Positions 25,780 to 47,918 of a stretch of DNA of 64,000 bases are shown here, in pieces (the stretch's first letter is position 1; each line of letters starts with the position of its first letter). The translations under genes were made by a program, and so were the position numbers. A model generated the notes under the pieces. That model saw nothing but the letters and a program-made list of their open reading frames with translations, did no database searches and was not told where the DNA came from. The DNA comes from Escherichia phage KEP1. The stretch is taken from the sequence record PP047755; one strand, written 5' to 3'.

Positions 25780-26058
25780 TCAATCAAAAGTTACGTTTGT
25801 TACTGCCATTGCAGATTTGCATTTTGCAGGGTCTACAACGTGATAAAGTACACTACAGTTACCTGTGCTGTCTGGTACAGGTTTAACCCATTGTTGCTTG
25901 ACAGTTGGTTCGCCTAAGTCTTTGTAAGAACCATCTGTAAAATTATTTATCATCTCAAGTGCAATTGGTTCTGGAATATGACCTCGTATCATGTACATCT
26001 CACAACCATTACCACCTTCACTAACTAATGGTAAAATCTCCCACTTTTCTTTAGCCAT
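25780..26058 (-). CDS. hypothetical protein (92 aa)
   Basis: ORF. Confidence 0.55.
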   Translation of the reverse strand: MAKEKWEILPLVSEGGNGCEMYMIRGHIPEPIALEMINNFTDGSYKDLGEPTVKQQWVKPVPDSTGNCSVLYHVVDPAKCKSAMAVTNVTFD

Positions 26059-26566
26059 TGTAAGTTGCCCTATAAACTGTCTCGAACTTCAACAGGAGAG
26101 ATATTGCCAAATCTGTATAGTTGTTGTCAAGCACATCTGGCATATTATTTTTGATATACCTCTCTTGCTCTTCATAGGTCATCTTAGGGATACTCAGGAG
26201 GCTATCTCCTTGCTTCTGGTTATCAGCTTTAGTTTGGATAAACCAGTTCGCACAGTGATGTTCGCCACCTTTTGTAACAGGTTTGTGGTGGCCTAGTGTA
26301 AATGTTTGCTTACCCGTATACCTGCAAAGATTGTTCAGTGTTGCAATGGTGTTCTTCACAACACACCATTCATACAGGTTATCTATTGTGTAGTGTGGGT
26401 AATAACGAACAAGTGCTCTTTCACGGAAGTTATCACGATTCCAAAGAACCATGTGATTAGAATTTGAAGGGTCATATTTGTGGGAGTCTATAAATTCTTG
26501 ACGCTCATCAAAGCTGAGTCTTAGAACTGACATTGCAACCGAACGTTTCAAGTTTGACAGATACAT
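26051..26566 (-). CDS. HNH endonuclease (free-standing homing-endonuclease-like)
   Basis: HNH motif GHHKPVTKGGEHHCANWFIQTKADNQKQG. Confidence 0.6.
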   Translation of the reverse strand: MYLSNLKRSVAMSVLRLSFDERQEFIDSHKYDPSNSNHMVLWNRDNFRERALVRYYPHYTIDNLYEWCVVKNTIATLNNLCRYTGKQTFTLGHHKPVTKGGEHHCANWFIQTKADNQKQGDSLLSIPKMTYEEQERYIKNNMPDVLDNNYTDLAISLLLKFETVYRATYNG

Positions 26567-36279: not shown

Positions 36280-36517
36280 TCGGACTCCTTAAAAATCTGT
36301 TAACTTTTAGCTCTCGTGTTTCAATATATTCCAGATGCTCACGTAACTCTTGACGTTTAAGCATTAGGTGCTGCATTTGAGATTCAACAGCTTCAACTTC
36401 TTTAATTATTGACTCTCTGGCATTTGCAAGAGTGCGCTCAAGTTCTTCAATCTTGCTGTCAACCTTTGCTACATGACTCACAGCTTTACTTTTGTTAAAC
36501 ATTTTATTCTCTCTCAA
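36272..36517 (-). CDS. hypothetical coiled-coil protein (81 aa)
   Basis: Heptad-like charged helix. Confidence 0.5.
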   Translation of the reverse strand: MRENKMFNKSKAVSHVAKVDSKIEELERTLANARESIIKEVEAVESQMQHLMLKRQELREHLEYIETRELKVNRFLRSPNV

Positions 36518-36523
36518 TAGTTA

Positions 36524-37024
36524 TCAAGCACAATTTGCTTTCATTACCTTATGGATTCTTTTTTCAGCATCTTCATAAGTTTCTTTAGTAATAAACTTAA
36601 TTGCTGCAATATTGGCATTGTAGAAGAGTCTGAGCTTAGAGTCAATCCTTTTTGTCATTACATCGAATTTATGTTGGAGGTTTGCTTCACCATAAACTAG
36701 GCCACCTTTCGTGTAGTAGGTTTGGATAATGTAAAAGTCAAAAAATTCTTTTCCAAAGCTCTCAATATCTTTTTTAACATACTCAGAAGAAGTCTCATAA
36801 GTCATCCAATCACTCTCCTTAGTGACTACCTTCTTCCGAGTCTTACCAGCAACTTTTCTTTTAGTCACACTATTAAGCTGTTTCTTACCCAAATAGTACT
36901 GTCCAGTCTTTTTGCAGTACACTAGGTAGACAAAACCAAAGTGCTTTGCTGGGTCAACTTCACCACATAGTGAAATCCAATGTCCATAAGTTGGACAACT
37001 CCCAAAACCTTTAACTTTAATCAT
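36524..37024 (-). CDS. GIY-YIG homing endonuclease-like protein
   Basis: FGFVYLVYCKKTGQYYLGKK matches the GIY-(10)-YIG signature. Confidence 0.6.
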   Translation of the reverse strand: MIKVKGFGSCPTYGHWISLCGEVDPAKHFGFVYLVYCKKTGQYYLGKKQLNSVTKRKVAGKTRKKVVTKESDWMTYETSSEYVKKDIESFGKEFFDFYIIQTYYTKGGLVYGEANLQHKFDVMTKRIDSKLRLFYNANIAAIKFITKETYEDAEKRIHKVMKANCA

Positions 37025-37521
37025 TCATAAGCTTCTCCGTGATTTGTAAACTCTTTATGGAGTTCTTCTCTTTTCTTTTTGACAACTAATTCAGCCTCAG
37101 CGATAGAGTCAAATAAACCTAGATGATAGCAAACTTTATTATGCTTGACTTGTGCAGCCCATCTACCTCTTTGCTTATGGTAATATACACCCTTCACACC
37201 AGATTTATTATCTCTTCTTTTGGCTGCATTACAGTTATTGTCTGACCTACTACACTCTCTCAAATTGTCGAACCAGTTGTCGTGCCTGATACCATTCTTA
37301 TGGTCAACAAATTTTGGTAGGTATCCTTTCATATACAAGAATGCCAGTCTGTGTGCTGCATATCTTTTCCCGAAGAGTTTTATGTAGATATAACCACTAT
37401 GATGTTTAAGACCCGCTACTGAGCCAGCTTTGGCCTTACCTTTTCTATTAACTAACCAAGTAAAGACCCCTGTTTCGGGGTCATAGTGCAGGTATTCTTT
37501 AAGAGTTTGTTGGGTTAACAT
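37021..37521 (-). CDS. HNH homing endonuclease-like protein with AP2-type DNA-binding domain
   Basis: LHYDPETGVFTWL, HRLAFLYMKG, VDHKNGIRHDN, GVKGVYYHKQRGRWAAQ; paralogue of 47385-47918; start taken at MLTQQ (ORF extends to 37545). Confidence 0.7.
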   Translation of the reverse strand: MLTQQTLKEYLHYDPETGVFTWLVNRKGKAKAGSVAGLKHHSGYIYIKLFGKRYAAHRLAFLYMKGYLPKFVDHKNGIRHDNWFDNLRECSRSDNNCNAAKRRDNKSGVKGVYYHKQRGRWAAQVKHNKVCYHLGLFDSIAEAELVVKKKREELHKEFTNHGEAYE

Positions 37522-38545
37522 TTGGTGTCCATCCATACTTATCAAAAGTGAAATCGTCTTTCTTATTTCTTTCCTGATAAGCTAAGAAAAAGTGTTGCTG
37601 CATTAACTCTAAAGGTGTTCTGGTAATTGTTTGACCATCCCACGAGACATAAGTGTATGACTCTTTCTTAGCATAAAGCTCATAAATTGCATCAAGACAC
37701 TCTTTGTAAGTGGTTTTACCTTCAAGGGCTTTCATTATAGTAACCTTACCAACACCCTTTAAACCGAAATAATTATCCGCATTATCACCAGCCACGGCTT
37801 GATAGCAAAGAAATTTAAAACCTACCCCAACTGTCTTCTTAGCTTTGGGTGTCGATTTTATTGGGCAATCCCAAATTTCACCAACGTTGTTATCAGCAAT
37901 GAAAATCAAAGGTGACTTTTCATAGGTCATATCAATGCAGTAAGTCCCTTCAGCTTGGCGAAGGTCTTTATCAATACTCATCAAGGCGGCCTTTTTACCC
38001 ATCTTTTCAGCTTTAGCAATAACGATAGAGTCGGCTTCAAATCCATCAAGAATTAGTTTGAACTCTGGTCTTGACAGAAGATATTCACGGCAAGCAACTA
38101 AGTGTGTTGGTGTGACAGCATCTTTACGGTTACCTTGATATTGGTGCTCAAGACCTTTAATGTCTTTATGTTTGTGTACACCTTTCTCTGTTAAGTAACC
38201 TACCCAAGTTCTTTCTTTACCAACAACCTTAAGCCATTCCTGAAGAACCTGTTGAGTAGCCATGATAGCTTCTTTTTCACTCTTAGCTTCTTTCCAAGTC
38301 TGTCTTTCCCATTCATCTTCATCAAATGCTAGGCCAAGCTCTTCTACAAGGATTCTCTGGTCTGCTAACCATCTTGCGGCATCTTTTGCATTATCAAATG
38401 GTTCAGATTCTTCTGCTGTGAGTTTATTGACATATTTATATTTTGCTTTCTCAACTACACAAGCACCTTTATAGGCAATACTATCAGAGTCAATAAAGAC
38501 ATGTGTAACTGAATCGGGAAGTTTTGTTAGTGTATACTTCTCCAT
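37499..38545 (-). CDS. flap endonuclease / 5'-3' exonuclease (RNase H-like)
   Basis: N-terminal HVFIDSDSIAY and GFEADSIVIAKA...LMSIDKDL acidic clusters typical of FEN/T4 RNase H. Confidence 0.7.
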   Translation of the reverse strand: MEKYTLTKLPDSVTHVFIDSDSIAYKGACVVEKAKYKYVNKLTAEESEPFDNAKDAARWLADQRILVEELGLAFDEDEWERQTWKEAKSEKEAIMATQQVLQEWLKVVGKERTWVGYLTEKGVHKHKDIKGLEHQYQGNRKDAVTPTHLVACREYLLSRPEFKLILDGFEADSIVIAKAEKMGKKAALMSIDKDLRQAEGTYCIDMTYEKSPLIFIADNNVGEIWDCPIKSTPKAKKTVGVGFKFLCYQAVAGDNADNYFGLKGVGKVTIMKALEGKTTYKECLDAIYELYAKKESYTYVSWDGQTITRTPLELMQQHFFLAYQERNKKDDFTFDKYGWTPNVNPTNS

Positions 38546-44156: not shown

Positions 44157-44413
44157 GTAAGCCTCTTTTAAGTAACTATTAAGTTTTAATCTTTTATCTT
44201 AACGTATTCTATACGTTATACTTTAAAGCTTTTTAAAAGCTATTAAATAATCTTTTAAGAGTTTTAAAGTATCTGTATAGTTAAACTGTTAAGTAACCTT
44301 TTAAGTAAAAACCCACTTCGCAAAGATTAACACCTTGTCAAGTGCATTGTCAACTTGCTTTTTATAATTTTTTGCAGTAATGTATGTGGTTAATGATTTT
44401 AGAGGGAGTAAAA

Positions 44414-46556
44414 ATGGAAAACGTAGATTTTAAAAACTTACATTTAGTTGGTGATACAGAAACTGATGGTTTACTCCTTGAGTTCACTAAAGTGCACGTA
44501 ATGGCTTTCGCAGACTATAAATCTGACGATGAAGAGCCACCTGTATGGGTCTTTACAGATGAGCCTATCCTCGGTCACAAGTATACCAAGTACATTAAGG
44601 GTGGTTTGCGTGAAGGTGTTGAGTTTGCGTTAAAGGCGAAACGTCTTTGCATCCATAATGGTCTCGGTTATGACTGGTGGGTTTTCAATCACATTGCACC
44701 TGATTTATGGAACTTTGATAATCCAAAGTGTAAACCGTGGAGTAATTTCTTTCAGGATTCTCTTATCCAGTCTCGTGTTCAGTGGATGGATAGGCCAACT
44801 CCAAAGGGTTATAAAGGTGCTCATGGCTTGGCTGCATGGGGTGCTCGTGTTGGTGTTCGTAAACCAGAGATTGAGCATTGGGGTGTATGGAATGCAGAAA
44901 TCTTCACTCGTGTTGTAGAAGATATTCGTATTAACGCCAAAACTAAACGGGCACTTGATAATGAGTATCTCAAGCTTAAGAAGTGTGGCATAGACACTTA
45001 TGAAACCTATATGCGAGCTAAAGAAACATCTTTCTGGATGAGTCAACAAGCTATCAATGGTTGGAAAGCTGATAAAGAGCTTATGGAGTTTCATGTAAAG
45101 GAGCTTGACAAGTTGACTAATGAGCTTGCTTCAGAGGTTGAACCACATCTACCTCCAACTATTAAGACCAAAGGTAAAGTCACTGGAGAAGAATTTGCAA
45201 AAGCTTGGAATGAGTATGTTGAAACATTTGGTCATGCAGATGGACTGAAAAGAATTACCAAGTATCCTAAGACAAAGTATCGTCAACAGGTGCGTAACGG
45301 TGAGATGCAGACATACGAAATCAAGCCATTTGGTAAGCCAACTACAAAGATTTTTAACATTGAAAAGAGAAATTGCTATACACCAACCAACTCTGTAACT
45401 GGTGAAGAGTACAAGGAAGGTTTTGTAGCAATGAAGGATGCTCGTGCAATTTGCAATGAGTTGAATGCAAAGATTGGTAAGAAGTGCAAAGACTGGAAGC
45501 CAGTAAAAACAGTTAAAACTGTGAAGTACTATAACAGCCATGTCGTTAACCACTTTGAGCTTGAGTCAAGTCGCTACACAGGTTTGATTGATGCACCATA
45601 TACACCAATTGAGTTCGAAGTTTCTCGTATGACTCAGGTAGCAGTTGTTAAAGACTACTTGAAATCAGTTGGTTGGATTCCAGATGACTGGAACTATAAG
45701 AAAGACTCAGATGGCCGTCCTGTTAAGGTTTGTCGTTTCAAAGACAACAAAAAGAGGATTACTAAGCACCCTAAATGGGATGAGATGGTTGAACGGTGTG
45801 GTTTGAGTTATGTTGAACATGAAGGTGTACAGTACATAGAGCATAACTGGTCTGTTAAGAAATACACAGATTTGCTTGAACCTTGCTTAATCCGTACTTC
45901 ACCAAAACTTACTGAATCATCTTATGATACGATTGAAGGTGAGCTTGGACAGAAGATTGCTAAGTACTATACTTTGATGCACAGACGTAGAACTATTGAG
46001 AACTCAAAGGATGATGAAAAAGGTTGGTTGAACCAGATTCGTCCTGATGGTCGCCTTAGTGCTGGCGCAATGGTGTTTGGTACTTCAACTGGACGTATGA
46101 CACAATATGGTATTGTAAACGTACCGTCTGGTGCTGCTGTCTATGGAGCACCTATGAGGGAGGTGTGGATTTGCGAGGAGGGGACTAATATCGTTTCAGT
46201 TGACCAGAACTCTGCACAGCTAGTTCTTCTTTGTAACTTTATGGGTGACAAAGACTTCACTAAAGCGGTAACTGAGGGTAAAGAGTCAGTAGAGTTCACT
46301 AAGCAAGATGACGGTAGATACTATTGCAAGCATCTCGATAAGTATCTTAATCCAGAAACTGACAAGTATCTTCGTTATGATGCTGAGAACGACCTCTACG
46401 AAGTCTACACAGGGACTGATGCGCATACACTGAACAGTATTTACTTTGGTCTGAACAAGGAAGAAGACATTGTTCGTTGTAGGGAGACACAGGATGAGGA
46501 ACTTCTCCACGAGATTACAAAAGGTCGTAAGAAAGCCAAAAATGGCATTTATGCGT
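44414..46556 (+). CDS. family A DNA polymerase, exon 1 (3'-5' exonuclease domain through start of motif B)
   Basis: GGGAG ribosome-binding site before ATG 44414; DnaQ-like exo motif LVGDTETDGL; motif A VDQNSAQLVLL (cf. DYSQIELR); frame ends in RKKAKNGIY, the start of motif B. Confidence 0.8.
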
Positions 46557-46824
46557 CAGTGGCGCATGTAAAACGTTGTGAATTGCTGGAAGCCTAAGTC
46601 TGTAAAGATATGGTAATCAGCAGCGAAGCCTCTTAAGAGGAACGTTCAGAGACTATCGAAAAGCATACTTAACGTATGAACTGAGTAGAGTAGGGTGGTA
46701 AGCTAATGACCATTCCCAAGTGCAACGGTAGTATTACTACTACGTGATATAGTCCGACACTCCGTAGAAATGCGGAGAAGTTCATAAGAGAACTGGTACA
46801 CCTTGCGAGTGTATTGACCAGATG
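46557..46824 (+). ncRNA. group I self-splicing intron (268 nt) interrupting polymerase motif B
   Basis: Classical P/Q/R/S core elements: AATTGCTGGAAG (46581-46592), AATCAGCAGC (46615-46624), GTTCAGAGACTA (46644-46655), GATATAGTCC (46746-46755); P1 pairs exon ATGCGT with GCGCAT (46562-46567) with U-G at the splice site; terminal G at 46824. Confidence 0.75.
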
Positions 46825-47381
46825 TATTGTTCGGTGCAGGTGATGAGAAGTTTGCAAAAACTATCAAGGCATCATCTACGGAAGAAGGTGCATTGACTAA
46901 ACAAACTTACTATATGCGTCTGCCAAAGATTAAGAAGTTACTTGATAGCTTAGAAGCCGATTTTAAGGCGTCTAAAAAGGCTCTGGAAGAGGTTTTTGGG
47001 AAGAATTCTTCAATTGCTAAAGGTGGTTATATCAGGGTCGCTGGAGCATGGATATGGTGCAAATCTCCACATAAACTACTGAACTACCTCCTGATGAGTT
47101 CGGAAGCACAGATTCAGAATGAGGCCATCAACCTAGCAGCAAGAAAAGCCTGTGAAGATGGCCTGACAAAACTGAATGCTCGAAAACCAGCTATCGGAGC
47201 AAGGTTACTTCTGGCATATCACGATGAAAATAGTTGGGAATGTCCAGAGGGTATGACACATGATATGAAAGCAATTGCTGACTGGATGTATGGACAAGCT
47301 TCAAAAAACTTAGGTTTGAGGAAAGAAACACTTGTAACTGGTACAGCAAAGGTTGGTAAGAGCTGGTATGAGGTACATTGA
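46825..47381 (+). CDS. family A DNA polymerase, exon 2 (rest of motif B and motif C)
   Basis: Spliced junction reads IYALLFGAGDEKFAK, same length as T7 IYGFLYGAGDEK; motif C LLAYHDENSWE. Confidence 0.75.
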
Positions 47382-47384
47382 TTA

Positions 47385-47918
47385 ATGGATTTAATTTTAC
47401 AAAAACGTTTAAAGGAGCTGCTGCACTATGACCCCGAAACAGGGGTCTTTACTTGGCTTCGTAGAGAAGGTAAATCAAGAGCTGTTAGTGTTTTTAACAG
47501 TAATTATGCAGGAAAGGTGGCAGGTAATATCCAGACTGATTCAAGTGGTCATAAACAGATTAGTATCTATTTTGACAAGAAAGCACATAAAGCACACAGA
47601 CTCGCATGGCTTTACGTGTATGGCAAGATGCCAAAAGGTATCATTGACCATATCAACGGAGACTCACTTGACAACAGGATTGTAAACTTAAGGGAAGCAG
47701 ATGACTTTCAAAGTGCTTGGAATAAAGGTAAGCTAGTCACCAATAAATCTGGGTACAAGGGTGTAAGTCTTAAGAAGAAGTCTGGTAAGTGGGTCGCACA
47801 GATAAGTTATAGAGGTAAGAAGATGTTTTTAGGTTATCATGACACACCTGAAGAAGCCCATAAAGCTTACTGTAAAGCTGCTGTGAAACTCCACGGAGAG
47901 TTTGCAAAACTAAGTTGA
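47385..47918 (+). CDS. HNH homing endonuclease-like protein with AP2-type domain, directly downstream of the intron-containing polymerase
   Basis: LHYDPETGVFTWL, HRLAWLYVYG, IDHINGDSLDNR, GYKGVSLKKKSGKWVAQ; paralogue of 37021-37521. Confidence 0.7.
   Translation: MDLILQKRLKELLHYDPETGVFTWLRREGKSRAVSVFNSNYAGKVAGNIQTDSSGHKQISIYFDKKAHKAHRLAWLYVYGKMPKGIIDHINGDSLDNRIVNLREADDFQSAWNKGKLVTNKSGYKGVSLKKKSGKWVAQISYRGKKMFLGYHDTPEEAHKAYCKAAVKLHGEFAKLS

Follow-up and report, generated by a model that had tools for sequence, protein, structure and literature searches.

The free-standing HNH-AP2 homing endonuclease gene that follows the DNA polymerase gene of Escherichia phage KEP1 and the small ORF-less group I intron inside that polymerase gene are, on balance, probably two independent selfish elements sharing a hot spot at the polymerase 3' end, and not an obligate pair. 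Both lie in the window, by which we mean the whole 64,000-nt stretch of record PP047755 analyzed here. It derives from a Felix O1-like myovirus (genus Felixounavirus), and its region 44000-48500 matches 262 phage records, the best of them at 95-97% identity.

In the model that we propose, the gene at 47385-47918 would be one of at least four interchangeable cassette alleles of a free-standing HNH-AP2 homing endonuclease. They would occupy a slot between the polymerase stop codon and the next gene that is polymorphic for presence and absence among Felix O1-like phages. From the sequences we infer an enzyme that would most likely cut or nick slot-empty genomes near the polymerase 3' end or at the intergenic insertion point, after which recombinational repair, with short co-conversion tracts, would copy the cassette in. 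The 268-nt intron would be a separate selfish element, an ORF-less version of a group I intron that is highly mobile and that, in sister phages, has an Endonuclease VII-type homing endonuclease of its own in the P6 loop. Cassette and intron would have in common a recombination hot spot covering the last ~900 nt of the polymerase gene, from ~300 nt upstream of the intron insertion site to the stop codon. The coordinates of the features discussed are collected in Table 1.

Table 1. Features of the window bearing on the polymerase intron and the endonuclease-like genes (+, strand as given; aa, residues of the 177-aa protein).
Feature	Position	Strand	Evidence
DNA polymerase (family A), exon 1	44384..46556	+	ORF list; weak Pfam DNA_pol_A match; relatives' GenBank annotation; intron-less alignment
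P1 pairing, exon AUGCGU (46551-46556) with intron guide GCGCAU (46562-46567)	46551..46567	+	Sequence
ORF-less group I intron, 268 nt	46557..46824	+	Rfam RF00028; boundaries from alignment
Short hairpin of the P6 region, CCUCUUAAGAGG	46629..46640	+	Alignment of short and long introns
DNA polymerase, exon 2 including stop	46825..47381	+	ORF list; alignment
HNH-AP2 homing endonuclease gene, cassette allele A, free-standing, intact 177 aa	47385-47918	+	Pfam; PHROGs
HNH_3 domain	about 47589-47696	+	Pfam; aa 69-104
AP2 domain	about 47748-47897	+	Pfam; aa 122-171
3' tail of the HNH-AP2 gene, ~95% conserved across alleles A-D	47840..47918	+	Matches restricted to query 456/466-534; allele comparison
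Second HNH-AP2 homing endonuclease gene (paralogue)	37021..37545	-	Pfam HNH_3 and AP2
SegE-like GIY-YIG gene, abutting the paralogue	36524..37024	-	PF19835, E 9.7e-27, 94 bits against a cut-off of 25; PHROG 447/7363
ORF with weak HNH-like similarity, assignment uncertain	26051..26566	-	PHROG

The HNH-AP2 gene and its counterparts in the window

The protein encoded at 47385-47918 matches Pfam family HNH_3 (PF13392; E 9.1e-15, 54.5 bits against a cut-off of 24.8) and, toward its C-terminus, family AP2 (PF00847; E 3.1e-11, 43.8 bits against a cut-off of 33.3). It also matches PHROG 99, a large family named “HNH endonuclease” (E 1e-70), and its C-terminal third aligns with the solved AP2 domains of plant ERF/WRI1. 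The translation shows the HNH_3 motif IIDHINGDSLDNRIVNL, and residues 88-102 form the catalytic-type motif DH-ING-DSLDN-RIVNL. The preliminary description, made from the letters of the window, had proposed an HNH endonuclease gene with an AP2 domain, starting 4 nt after the polymerase stop and about 560 bp from the intron insertion site. All of this holds: both domains exceed their Pfam cut-offs, the stop codon ends at 47381 and leaves a 3-nt spacer, the ATG beginning at the fourth base past the stop, and the exact intron boundaries set the distance at 560 bp. The ATG has a GAGG 11 nt before it, and a scan for a promoter or terminator belonging to the gene gave nothing above shuffled expectation, a combination that points to a gene probably co-transcribed and translationally coupled with the polymerase. 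Full-length matches to it at 95% identity or more (hereafter allele A) occur in 41 phage records. The gene is of a mobile type, the same site being filled or empty among close and otherwise collinear relatives.

The same description counted four homing-endonuclease-like genes in the window, and three of them stand. The second HNH-AP2 copy near 37 kb has both domains and is 42% identical over 173 aa to the protein at 47385-47918, with the common N-terminal motif LHYDPETGVFTWL. Its first start is a TTG at 37545, and the ATG at 37521 chosen earlier is in frame with it. This paralogue is itself present or absent among relatives: at least 80% of region 36300-37800 is covered in only 42 of 242 matching records, and many of the others miss just the paralogue. 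The abutting GIY-YIG gene is indeed of SegE type and is near-universal in the genus. Its frequent label “NAD synthetase” is probably an annotation error propagated via PHROG 447. The fourth gene, described as a plain HNH, is the weak one: no Pfam family match was found for 26051-26566, the best PHROG match is phrog_3500 (unknown function; E 7e-93), and the HNH family phrog_2214 is matched marginally (E 2.7e-6); an HH..GG..N..N-like motif can be made out by eye. A tblastn search with all of these endonuclease-like proteins found no further copies in the window.

The polymerase intron and its forms in relatives

A single group I intron is recognized by Rfam (RF00028; E 5.5e-14, 64.2 bits with a gathering score of 50), whose boundaries were fixed by alignment to the intron-less polymerase of phage bumzen. 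The 5' splice site is preceded by U46556, which forms the U-G wobble in P1, the last intron base is G46824, and the reading frame ...NGIYALLFGAGDE... is restored once 46557-46824 is removed in silico. Apart from the exon 1 read-through, there is no plus-strand ORF of 40 aa or more inside these limits, so that the intron is ORF-less as first described. It is thus a group I intron with correct splice-site features, and self-splicing is predicted. In the relatives' annotation, the polymerase starts at the ATG equivalent to window position 44414. The minus-strand ORFs of 54-62 aa at window positions 46669-46867, which overlap the 3' half of the intron and are annotated as “hypothetical protein” in several relatives (e.g., FG1m, LinBro, and Sl26), are almost certainly spurious, being inside the ribozyme core.

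The polymerase intron occurs in 96 of the ~262 records, always at exactly one site, and in three sizes: 268 nt (44 records), about 311 nt (e.g., Mushroom, garuso, and Tf), and about 801-811 nt. Where the short form has its hairpin, the long form carries an ORF of 160-161 aa in the P6 loop, with the layout UCUCUGUUAGGA...(160-aa Endonuclease VII ORF)...UCCUAACAGAGA. The encoded protein is of the Endonuclease VII type (ββα-Me; PF02945, E 6e-20; PHROG 307, E 8e-43), and about 40% of intron-bearing relatives have it (in our set, loci L009:4786-5268, L023, L024, and L039-L051). In GenBank it is variously labeled “endonuclease VII,” “endonuclease,” “DNA polymerase I,” or “hypothetical protein.” A single megablast query with this ORF gave 26 long introns, which is a lower bound because it missed the EC6-type variant; the long-intron calls used here are based on locus lengths and directly fetched records.

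Decay of the Endonuclease VII-type ORF is visible in two places. In VpaE1 (L025), a 22-nt deletion with frameshift truncates it to 101 aa. The 311-nt form (L035-L037: Mushroom, garuso, and Tf) derives cleanly from the long one by loss of the sequence between the imperfect direct repeats ACTCCTAAA/ACTACCTAAG, located around intron positions 70-130, and it keeps the ORF stop codon and a 3' untranslated remnant. The 268-nt form was also considered as a simple deletion of the known long forms, and this was not borne out: its hairpin stem reads CCUC/GAGG vs. UCUC/GAGA. Because the stems differ by a compensated pair, the 268-nt form may be either ancestral or an older derivative. Exact-pattern metagenome scans with the short-form hairpin and with the conserved intron 3' core returned zero matches, and IMG/VR added only one short-intron genome, already known.

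Between genomes whose exons are 20-25% different, the intron core has 0-2 differences over 184 nt, and the intron is therefore mobile in its own right. Donor-type exon sequence beside each copy spans only about 20-60 nt. An invariant core with such short donor-type flanks is the classic sequence signature of repeated homing at the insertion site. Sister phages have both the intron ORF and its decayed forms, and the genus therefore already has a dedicated intron endonuclease and a route to ORF-less copies. The 5' flank of the insertion site is TATGCGT in all intron-bearing alleles; most intron-less ones read TACGCCC or TATGCAC. Two of 24 intron-less alleles, both from IMG/VR and phiSUSP1/SUSP2-like (L022 and L026), keep TATGCGT, which is needed for the P1 pairing and is a possible footprint of intron loss or partial co-conversion.

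A slot filled by alternative cassettes

The region was compared across 57 loci (29 from IMG/VR, 27 from GenBank, and the window). Between the polymerase stop and the next gene there is either a 61-nt spacer or one of four HNH-AP2 families: A, found in the window and with a sub-type “a” at 84% identity; B; C, the Felix O1 ORF95 type; and D. The four proteins are 40-50% identical to each other, which makes them as distant from one another as A is from the 37-kb paralogue. Sequence common to these divergent alleles is limited to the last 69-79 nt of the gene. The conserved tail is likely the right-hand homology arm for cassette exchange, and together with the end of the polymerase gene it suggests a pair of such arms. 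Three loci (L004, L053, and L054) have allele B in a polymerase background that otherwise equals that of the allele-A genomes, the differences being confined to the last 20-25 nt of the polymerase. Altogether, allele B spans six polymerase 3' backgrounds and allele A only one, with exon 2 about 99% identical in all allele-A genomes.

The polymerase 3' end is itself a mosaic. Divergence among Felixounaviruses is concentrated at 46200-47381, the last ~900 nt of the gene, where identity drops to 69-85%. The first 1.8 kb are 91-100% identical, with the exception of one bin at 86-95% near 45700. Left, middle, and right parts of the divergent region reassort almost freely, each in ~10 sequence types.

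In Salmonella phage GEC_vB_BS (MW006475; L038, locus 2314-2460), most of exon 2 and of the HNH gene is missing, and what is left of exon 2, 93 nt, runs straight into the conserved 3' tail of the HNH gene. The record reflects either a faulty assembly or a defective genome, and GE_vB_NS7 may be similar. This Felixounavirus locus, with intron and allele A included, is matched at 96% identity by MG065664 and MG065668 (“Campylobacter phage A132/A126”), two records that are likely mislabeled or contaminated.

Co-occurrence of intron form and cassette

Lists of GenBank records were made complete by tightening the E-value until only full-length matches remained. The short intron is then present in 44 records and allele A (at least 95% identity) in 41, with both in 31. 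Ten of the 41 allele-A records lack any intron (bumzen, HY02 twice, Z31, CRP22, FGS030, ph2-2, ULIM9, ECOH1, and AN17P8), and 13 short-intron records have another allele, for example B in Meda, phiWec174, 35FD, BPSELC-1, and BPS17L1, C in tootiki and fBSPA4, or D in HMD-P8. These counts led us to reject a simple pairing of allele A with the short intron, and the 268-nt intron is found beside all four HNH-AP2 families. The slot is occupied in all 41 short-intron records that were checked out of 44 (phiWec172, phiWec177, and fKMPT1 were left out). Among 20 long-intron genomes it is empty in 14 and occupied in six, and among the intron-less genomes of an unselected IMG/VR sample it is occupied in 16 of 24.

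To reduce pseudo-replication, the loci were collapsed to distinct combinations of three polymerase segments, intron class, and allele. The slot is occupied in nine and empty in none of the haplotypes with an ORF-less intron, occupied in three and empty in five of those whose intron has an ORF, and occupied in nine and empty in four of those with no intron. In Fisher tests on these haplotypes, any intron vs. none gives p = 1.0, ORF-less vs. ORF-containing introns p = 0.009, and ORF-less introns vs. all others p = 0.029, values that are nominal, given that the haplotypes share ancestry and that a slot, once filled, should tend to remain so. The nine ORF-less haplotypes represent two independent forms (268 and 311 nt) in nine background-by-allele combinations. 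For a co-occurrence of intron and endonuclease across relatives, as looked for from the preliminary description, the picture is thus mixed: introns in general give no association and allele A is often found without one, and the ORF-less introns alone point toward it.

Full independence of the two elements does not predict this last pattern, which could still come from linkage together with the one-way nature of homing. It is also the reason why trans homing or endonuclease turnover, in the style of T4 mobE and nrdB, keeps a small share of our confidence, though we consider it rather unlikely. Here, the ORF-less intron would have lost its endonuclease or never had one. With trans homing, any HNH-AP2 cassette 560 bp away would start a gene conversion that sometimes carries the intron along; with turnover, an idea discussed for other phages (PMC10448857), the neighboring endonuclease would relax selection on the intronic one, which then decays. 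The contrast between ORF-less and ORF-containing haplotypes (occupied 9/9 vs. 3/8) and the uniformly occupied short-intron records fit well, as do the pairing of the 311-nt deletion form with allele D and the existence of a genome with a long intron and D (PC79-13), and 560 bp is within the T4 co-conversion range (PMC2790892). However, the haplotypes are phylogenetically non-independent, a slot once filled tends to stay so, and allele B also accompanies long introns without loss of the ORF (VSe11, FG1m, and Si3). The narrower proposition that the ORF-less intron persists only with an HNH-AP2 cassette (one of several, of unrelated specificity) 560 bp away is possible but doubtful. If true, a free-standing endonuclease would functionally replace the intron's Endonuclease VII-type gene, and turnover or trans homing would have been caught in all its intermediates within one genus: intact ORF, frameshifted ORF, 311-nt form, and 268-nt form.

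Footprints of gene conversion

Natural recombinants indicate where the cassettes may enter. Loci with allele B (L015/L020), D (L019), and a (L013) scarcely differ from empty-slot relatives in the compared 600 nt of exon 1 or in exon 2 up to about +250-300, and from there to the polymerase end they diverge by ~25%. In two loci with allele B (L039/L041), exon 2 differs from that of L044 only from about +350, and in another (L012) the differences from L011 are found only in the last ~60 nt. The tracts of alleles B, D, and a therefore start between +250 and +540 of exon 2, downstream of the insertion site. The polymerase positions most strongly associated with slot occupancy, in a comparison of 51 unique haplotypes, fall at +300 to +557 of exon 2 (p down to 5e-9), and the 50 nt around the insertion site show no comparable association. 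One pair is particularly informative: L055 (short intron with allele B) and L047 (long intron with empty slot) are of one background and have an identical exon 2 from +41 to +535 except for a SNP at +132. Since exon 2 is the same in between, the intron swap and the insertion of B must be two separate short patches.

Whatever lies between the cleavage site and the endonuclease gene has to be co-converted, which argues that the target of alleles B, D, and a is not the intron insertion site. Indirectly, from these recombinants, it would be placed in the 3' part of the polymerase gene or at the slot. Such comparisons weaken the case for trans homing or turnover, as the tracts of B, D, and a end 250-540 nt short of the intron and, in the L055/L047 pair, intron form and endonuclease gene were replaced in two distinct patches that left the resident exon 2 in the middle untouched. 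They are consistent with two elements that move independently within one hot spot.

Allele A deserves separate treatment. Its eight loci show a nucleotide diversity of 5.6% on the left side of the insertion site that falls to 1.2% in exon 2 and is 2% across the HNH gene, and this drop gives the allele-A block a left edge at the insertion site. Allele A never occurs with the common “type 2” intact site; wherever it is found, the site is either interrupted or of one specific intron-less variant. This left edge and the limitation to two site states count against our two-element model. Taken as they stand, they fit the strict collaborative homing toward which the preliminary description leaned, where allele A would cut the intron-less polymerase at the intron insertion site, the intron would disrupt the cut site and shield its carrier, and intron and endonuclease gene would be copied together. 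The geometry, an ORF-less intron with a free-standing gene 560 bp away and so close enough for recombination to span both, is as in T3/phiI and S-PM2 (PMC3984707), and 31 of the 41 allele-A records do have the short intron. The arrangement itself therefore stands as first described, but the comparative data mostly speak against a specific partnership, and we regard strict collaborative homing as improbable. It is unsupported because ten of the 41 allele-A records keep an uninterrupted site, the short intron accompanies four cassette families, any intron vs. none gives no association with occupancy, the tracts lie off the site, and relatives already have an Endonuclease VII-type gene dedicated to this intron, mostly where the slot is empty. 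Furthermore, the sub-type a (84% identical to A) coexists with three different intact insertion-site sequences, and a break at the site should homogenize both flanks, whereas only the right one is uniform.

There is also no direct sign that allele A has moved between polymerase backgrounds, and because it occurs in a single background, the informative pair of genomes is absent in its case. Homing of the intron itself could explain the left edge equally well, as could a barrier formed by the 268-nt heterology against tracts arriving from the right. A pile-up of synonymous changes at the insertion site, which would mark an immune target, was looked for in the intron-less allele-A genomes: 9 of 12 codons differ by eye, about as many as the background, which is a rough estimate of local divergence between two polymerase types, and at this level of comparison no enrichment is apparent.

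That the gene is an inactive or domesticated remnant, such as an AP2-type DNA-binding regulator without current homing, is very hard to believe: AP2 domains have been co-opted as plant transcription factors (Magnani 2004, cited in PMC10448857) and allele A gives no evidence of transfer between polymerase backgrounds, but none of the eight allele-A loci that we examined has lost the full 177-aa ORF, the protein retains the residues of the HNH_3 motif, and presence/absence and cassette polymorphism are typical of selfish genes and not of a required regulator. The better-supported view is that cassette and intron are probably separate selfish elements meeting at the polymerase 3' end.

Relation to known homing systems and outlook

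The locus shares traits with several known systems. A Felix O1 protein was reportedly listed among the viral examples of Magnani, Sjolander, and Hake in 2004. HNH-AP2 homing endonucleases are a described family, credited to Magnani 2004 in a study that treats them as a phage endonuclease class (PMC10448857). As in that family, the protein described here has an N-terminal HNH_3 and a C-terminal AP2 domain, and its small free-standing gene lies by an essential replication gene and is present or absent among close relatives. Unlike the family in general, four cassette alleles here alternate at one slot with only a 70-80-nt 3' tail in common.

Collaborative homing is known from F-CphI and the psbA intron of cyanophage S-PM2 and from the T3/phiI DNA polymerase (Zeng et al., 2009; Bonocora and Shub, 2009; as summarized in PMC3984707), and the geometry of collaborative and trans homing has been described (PMC3984707; PMC2790892). 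In its strict form, cleavage occurs at the insertion site and the intron acts as protection (PMC3984707). That defining cleavage is indirectly disfavored in the present case, the endonuclease gene is often without an intron, and the intron's own endonuclease in relatives is from a different family. As this latter enzyme is of the Endonuclease VII family, the HNH-AP2 neighbor would not be the precursor of the intronic gene. In T4, mobE mobilizes the nrdB intron with its defunct I-TevIII by trans homing (PMC2790892). The likeness is in the adjacent free-standing HNH endonuclease and in an intron without a working endonuclease, and in this type of homing the cut need not be at the insertion site; the difference is that natural recombinants here have tracts usually ending short of the intron. 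Endonuclease islands are also found at boundaries of genetic exchange in ICP1 and other phages (PMC10448857). As in those islands, endonuclease genes flank an essential gene, identity shifts sharply there, and a free-standing gene sits beside an intron. Here, however, the genus is different and one intron is seen in three states (with ORF, 311 nt, and 268 nt) across ~260 genomes.

For this genus, multiple HNH genes in Felix O1 were noted in 2010 and the intron is absent from that type phage (PMC3185647), and an ORF-less polymerase intron was mentioned in the genome announcement of Meda (PMC6486253). Dozens of Felixounavirus records in GenBank label the gene “HNH endonuclease,” and the Mushroom record calls it “HNH homing endonuclease, AP2/ERF domain.” Our literature search found no paper analyzing this locus as a homing system or a Felixounavirus enzyme of this kind. 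The gene alone is routine and already annotated, and the value of the finding, a modest one, is in its population context.

For phage taxonomy and annotation there is a practical side, as the polymerase is often annotated as two genes and spurious ORFs are called in the intron. Above all, ~260 sequenced and easily grown coliphages and Salmonella phages present, at a single locus, combinations of three states of the intron and five of the slot, which makes it a tractable natural system. It can serve to ask where HNH-AP2 enzymes cut, how the mosaic 3' end of an essential polymerase gene arose, and whether free-standing endonucleases mobilize or replace intron endonucleases.
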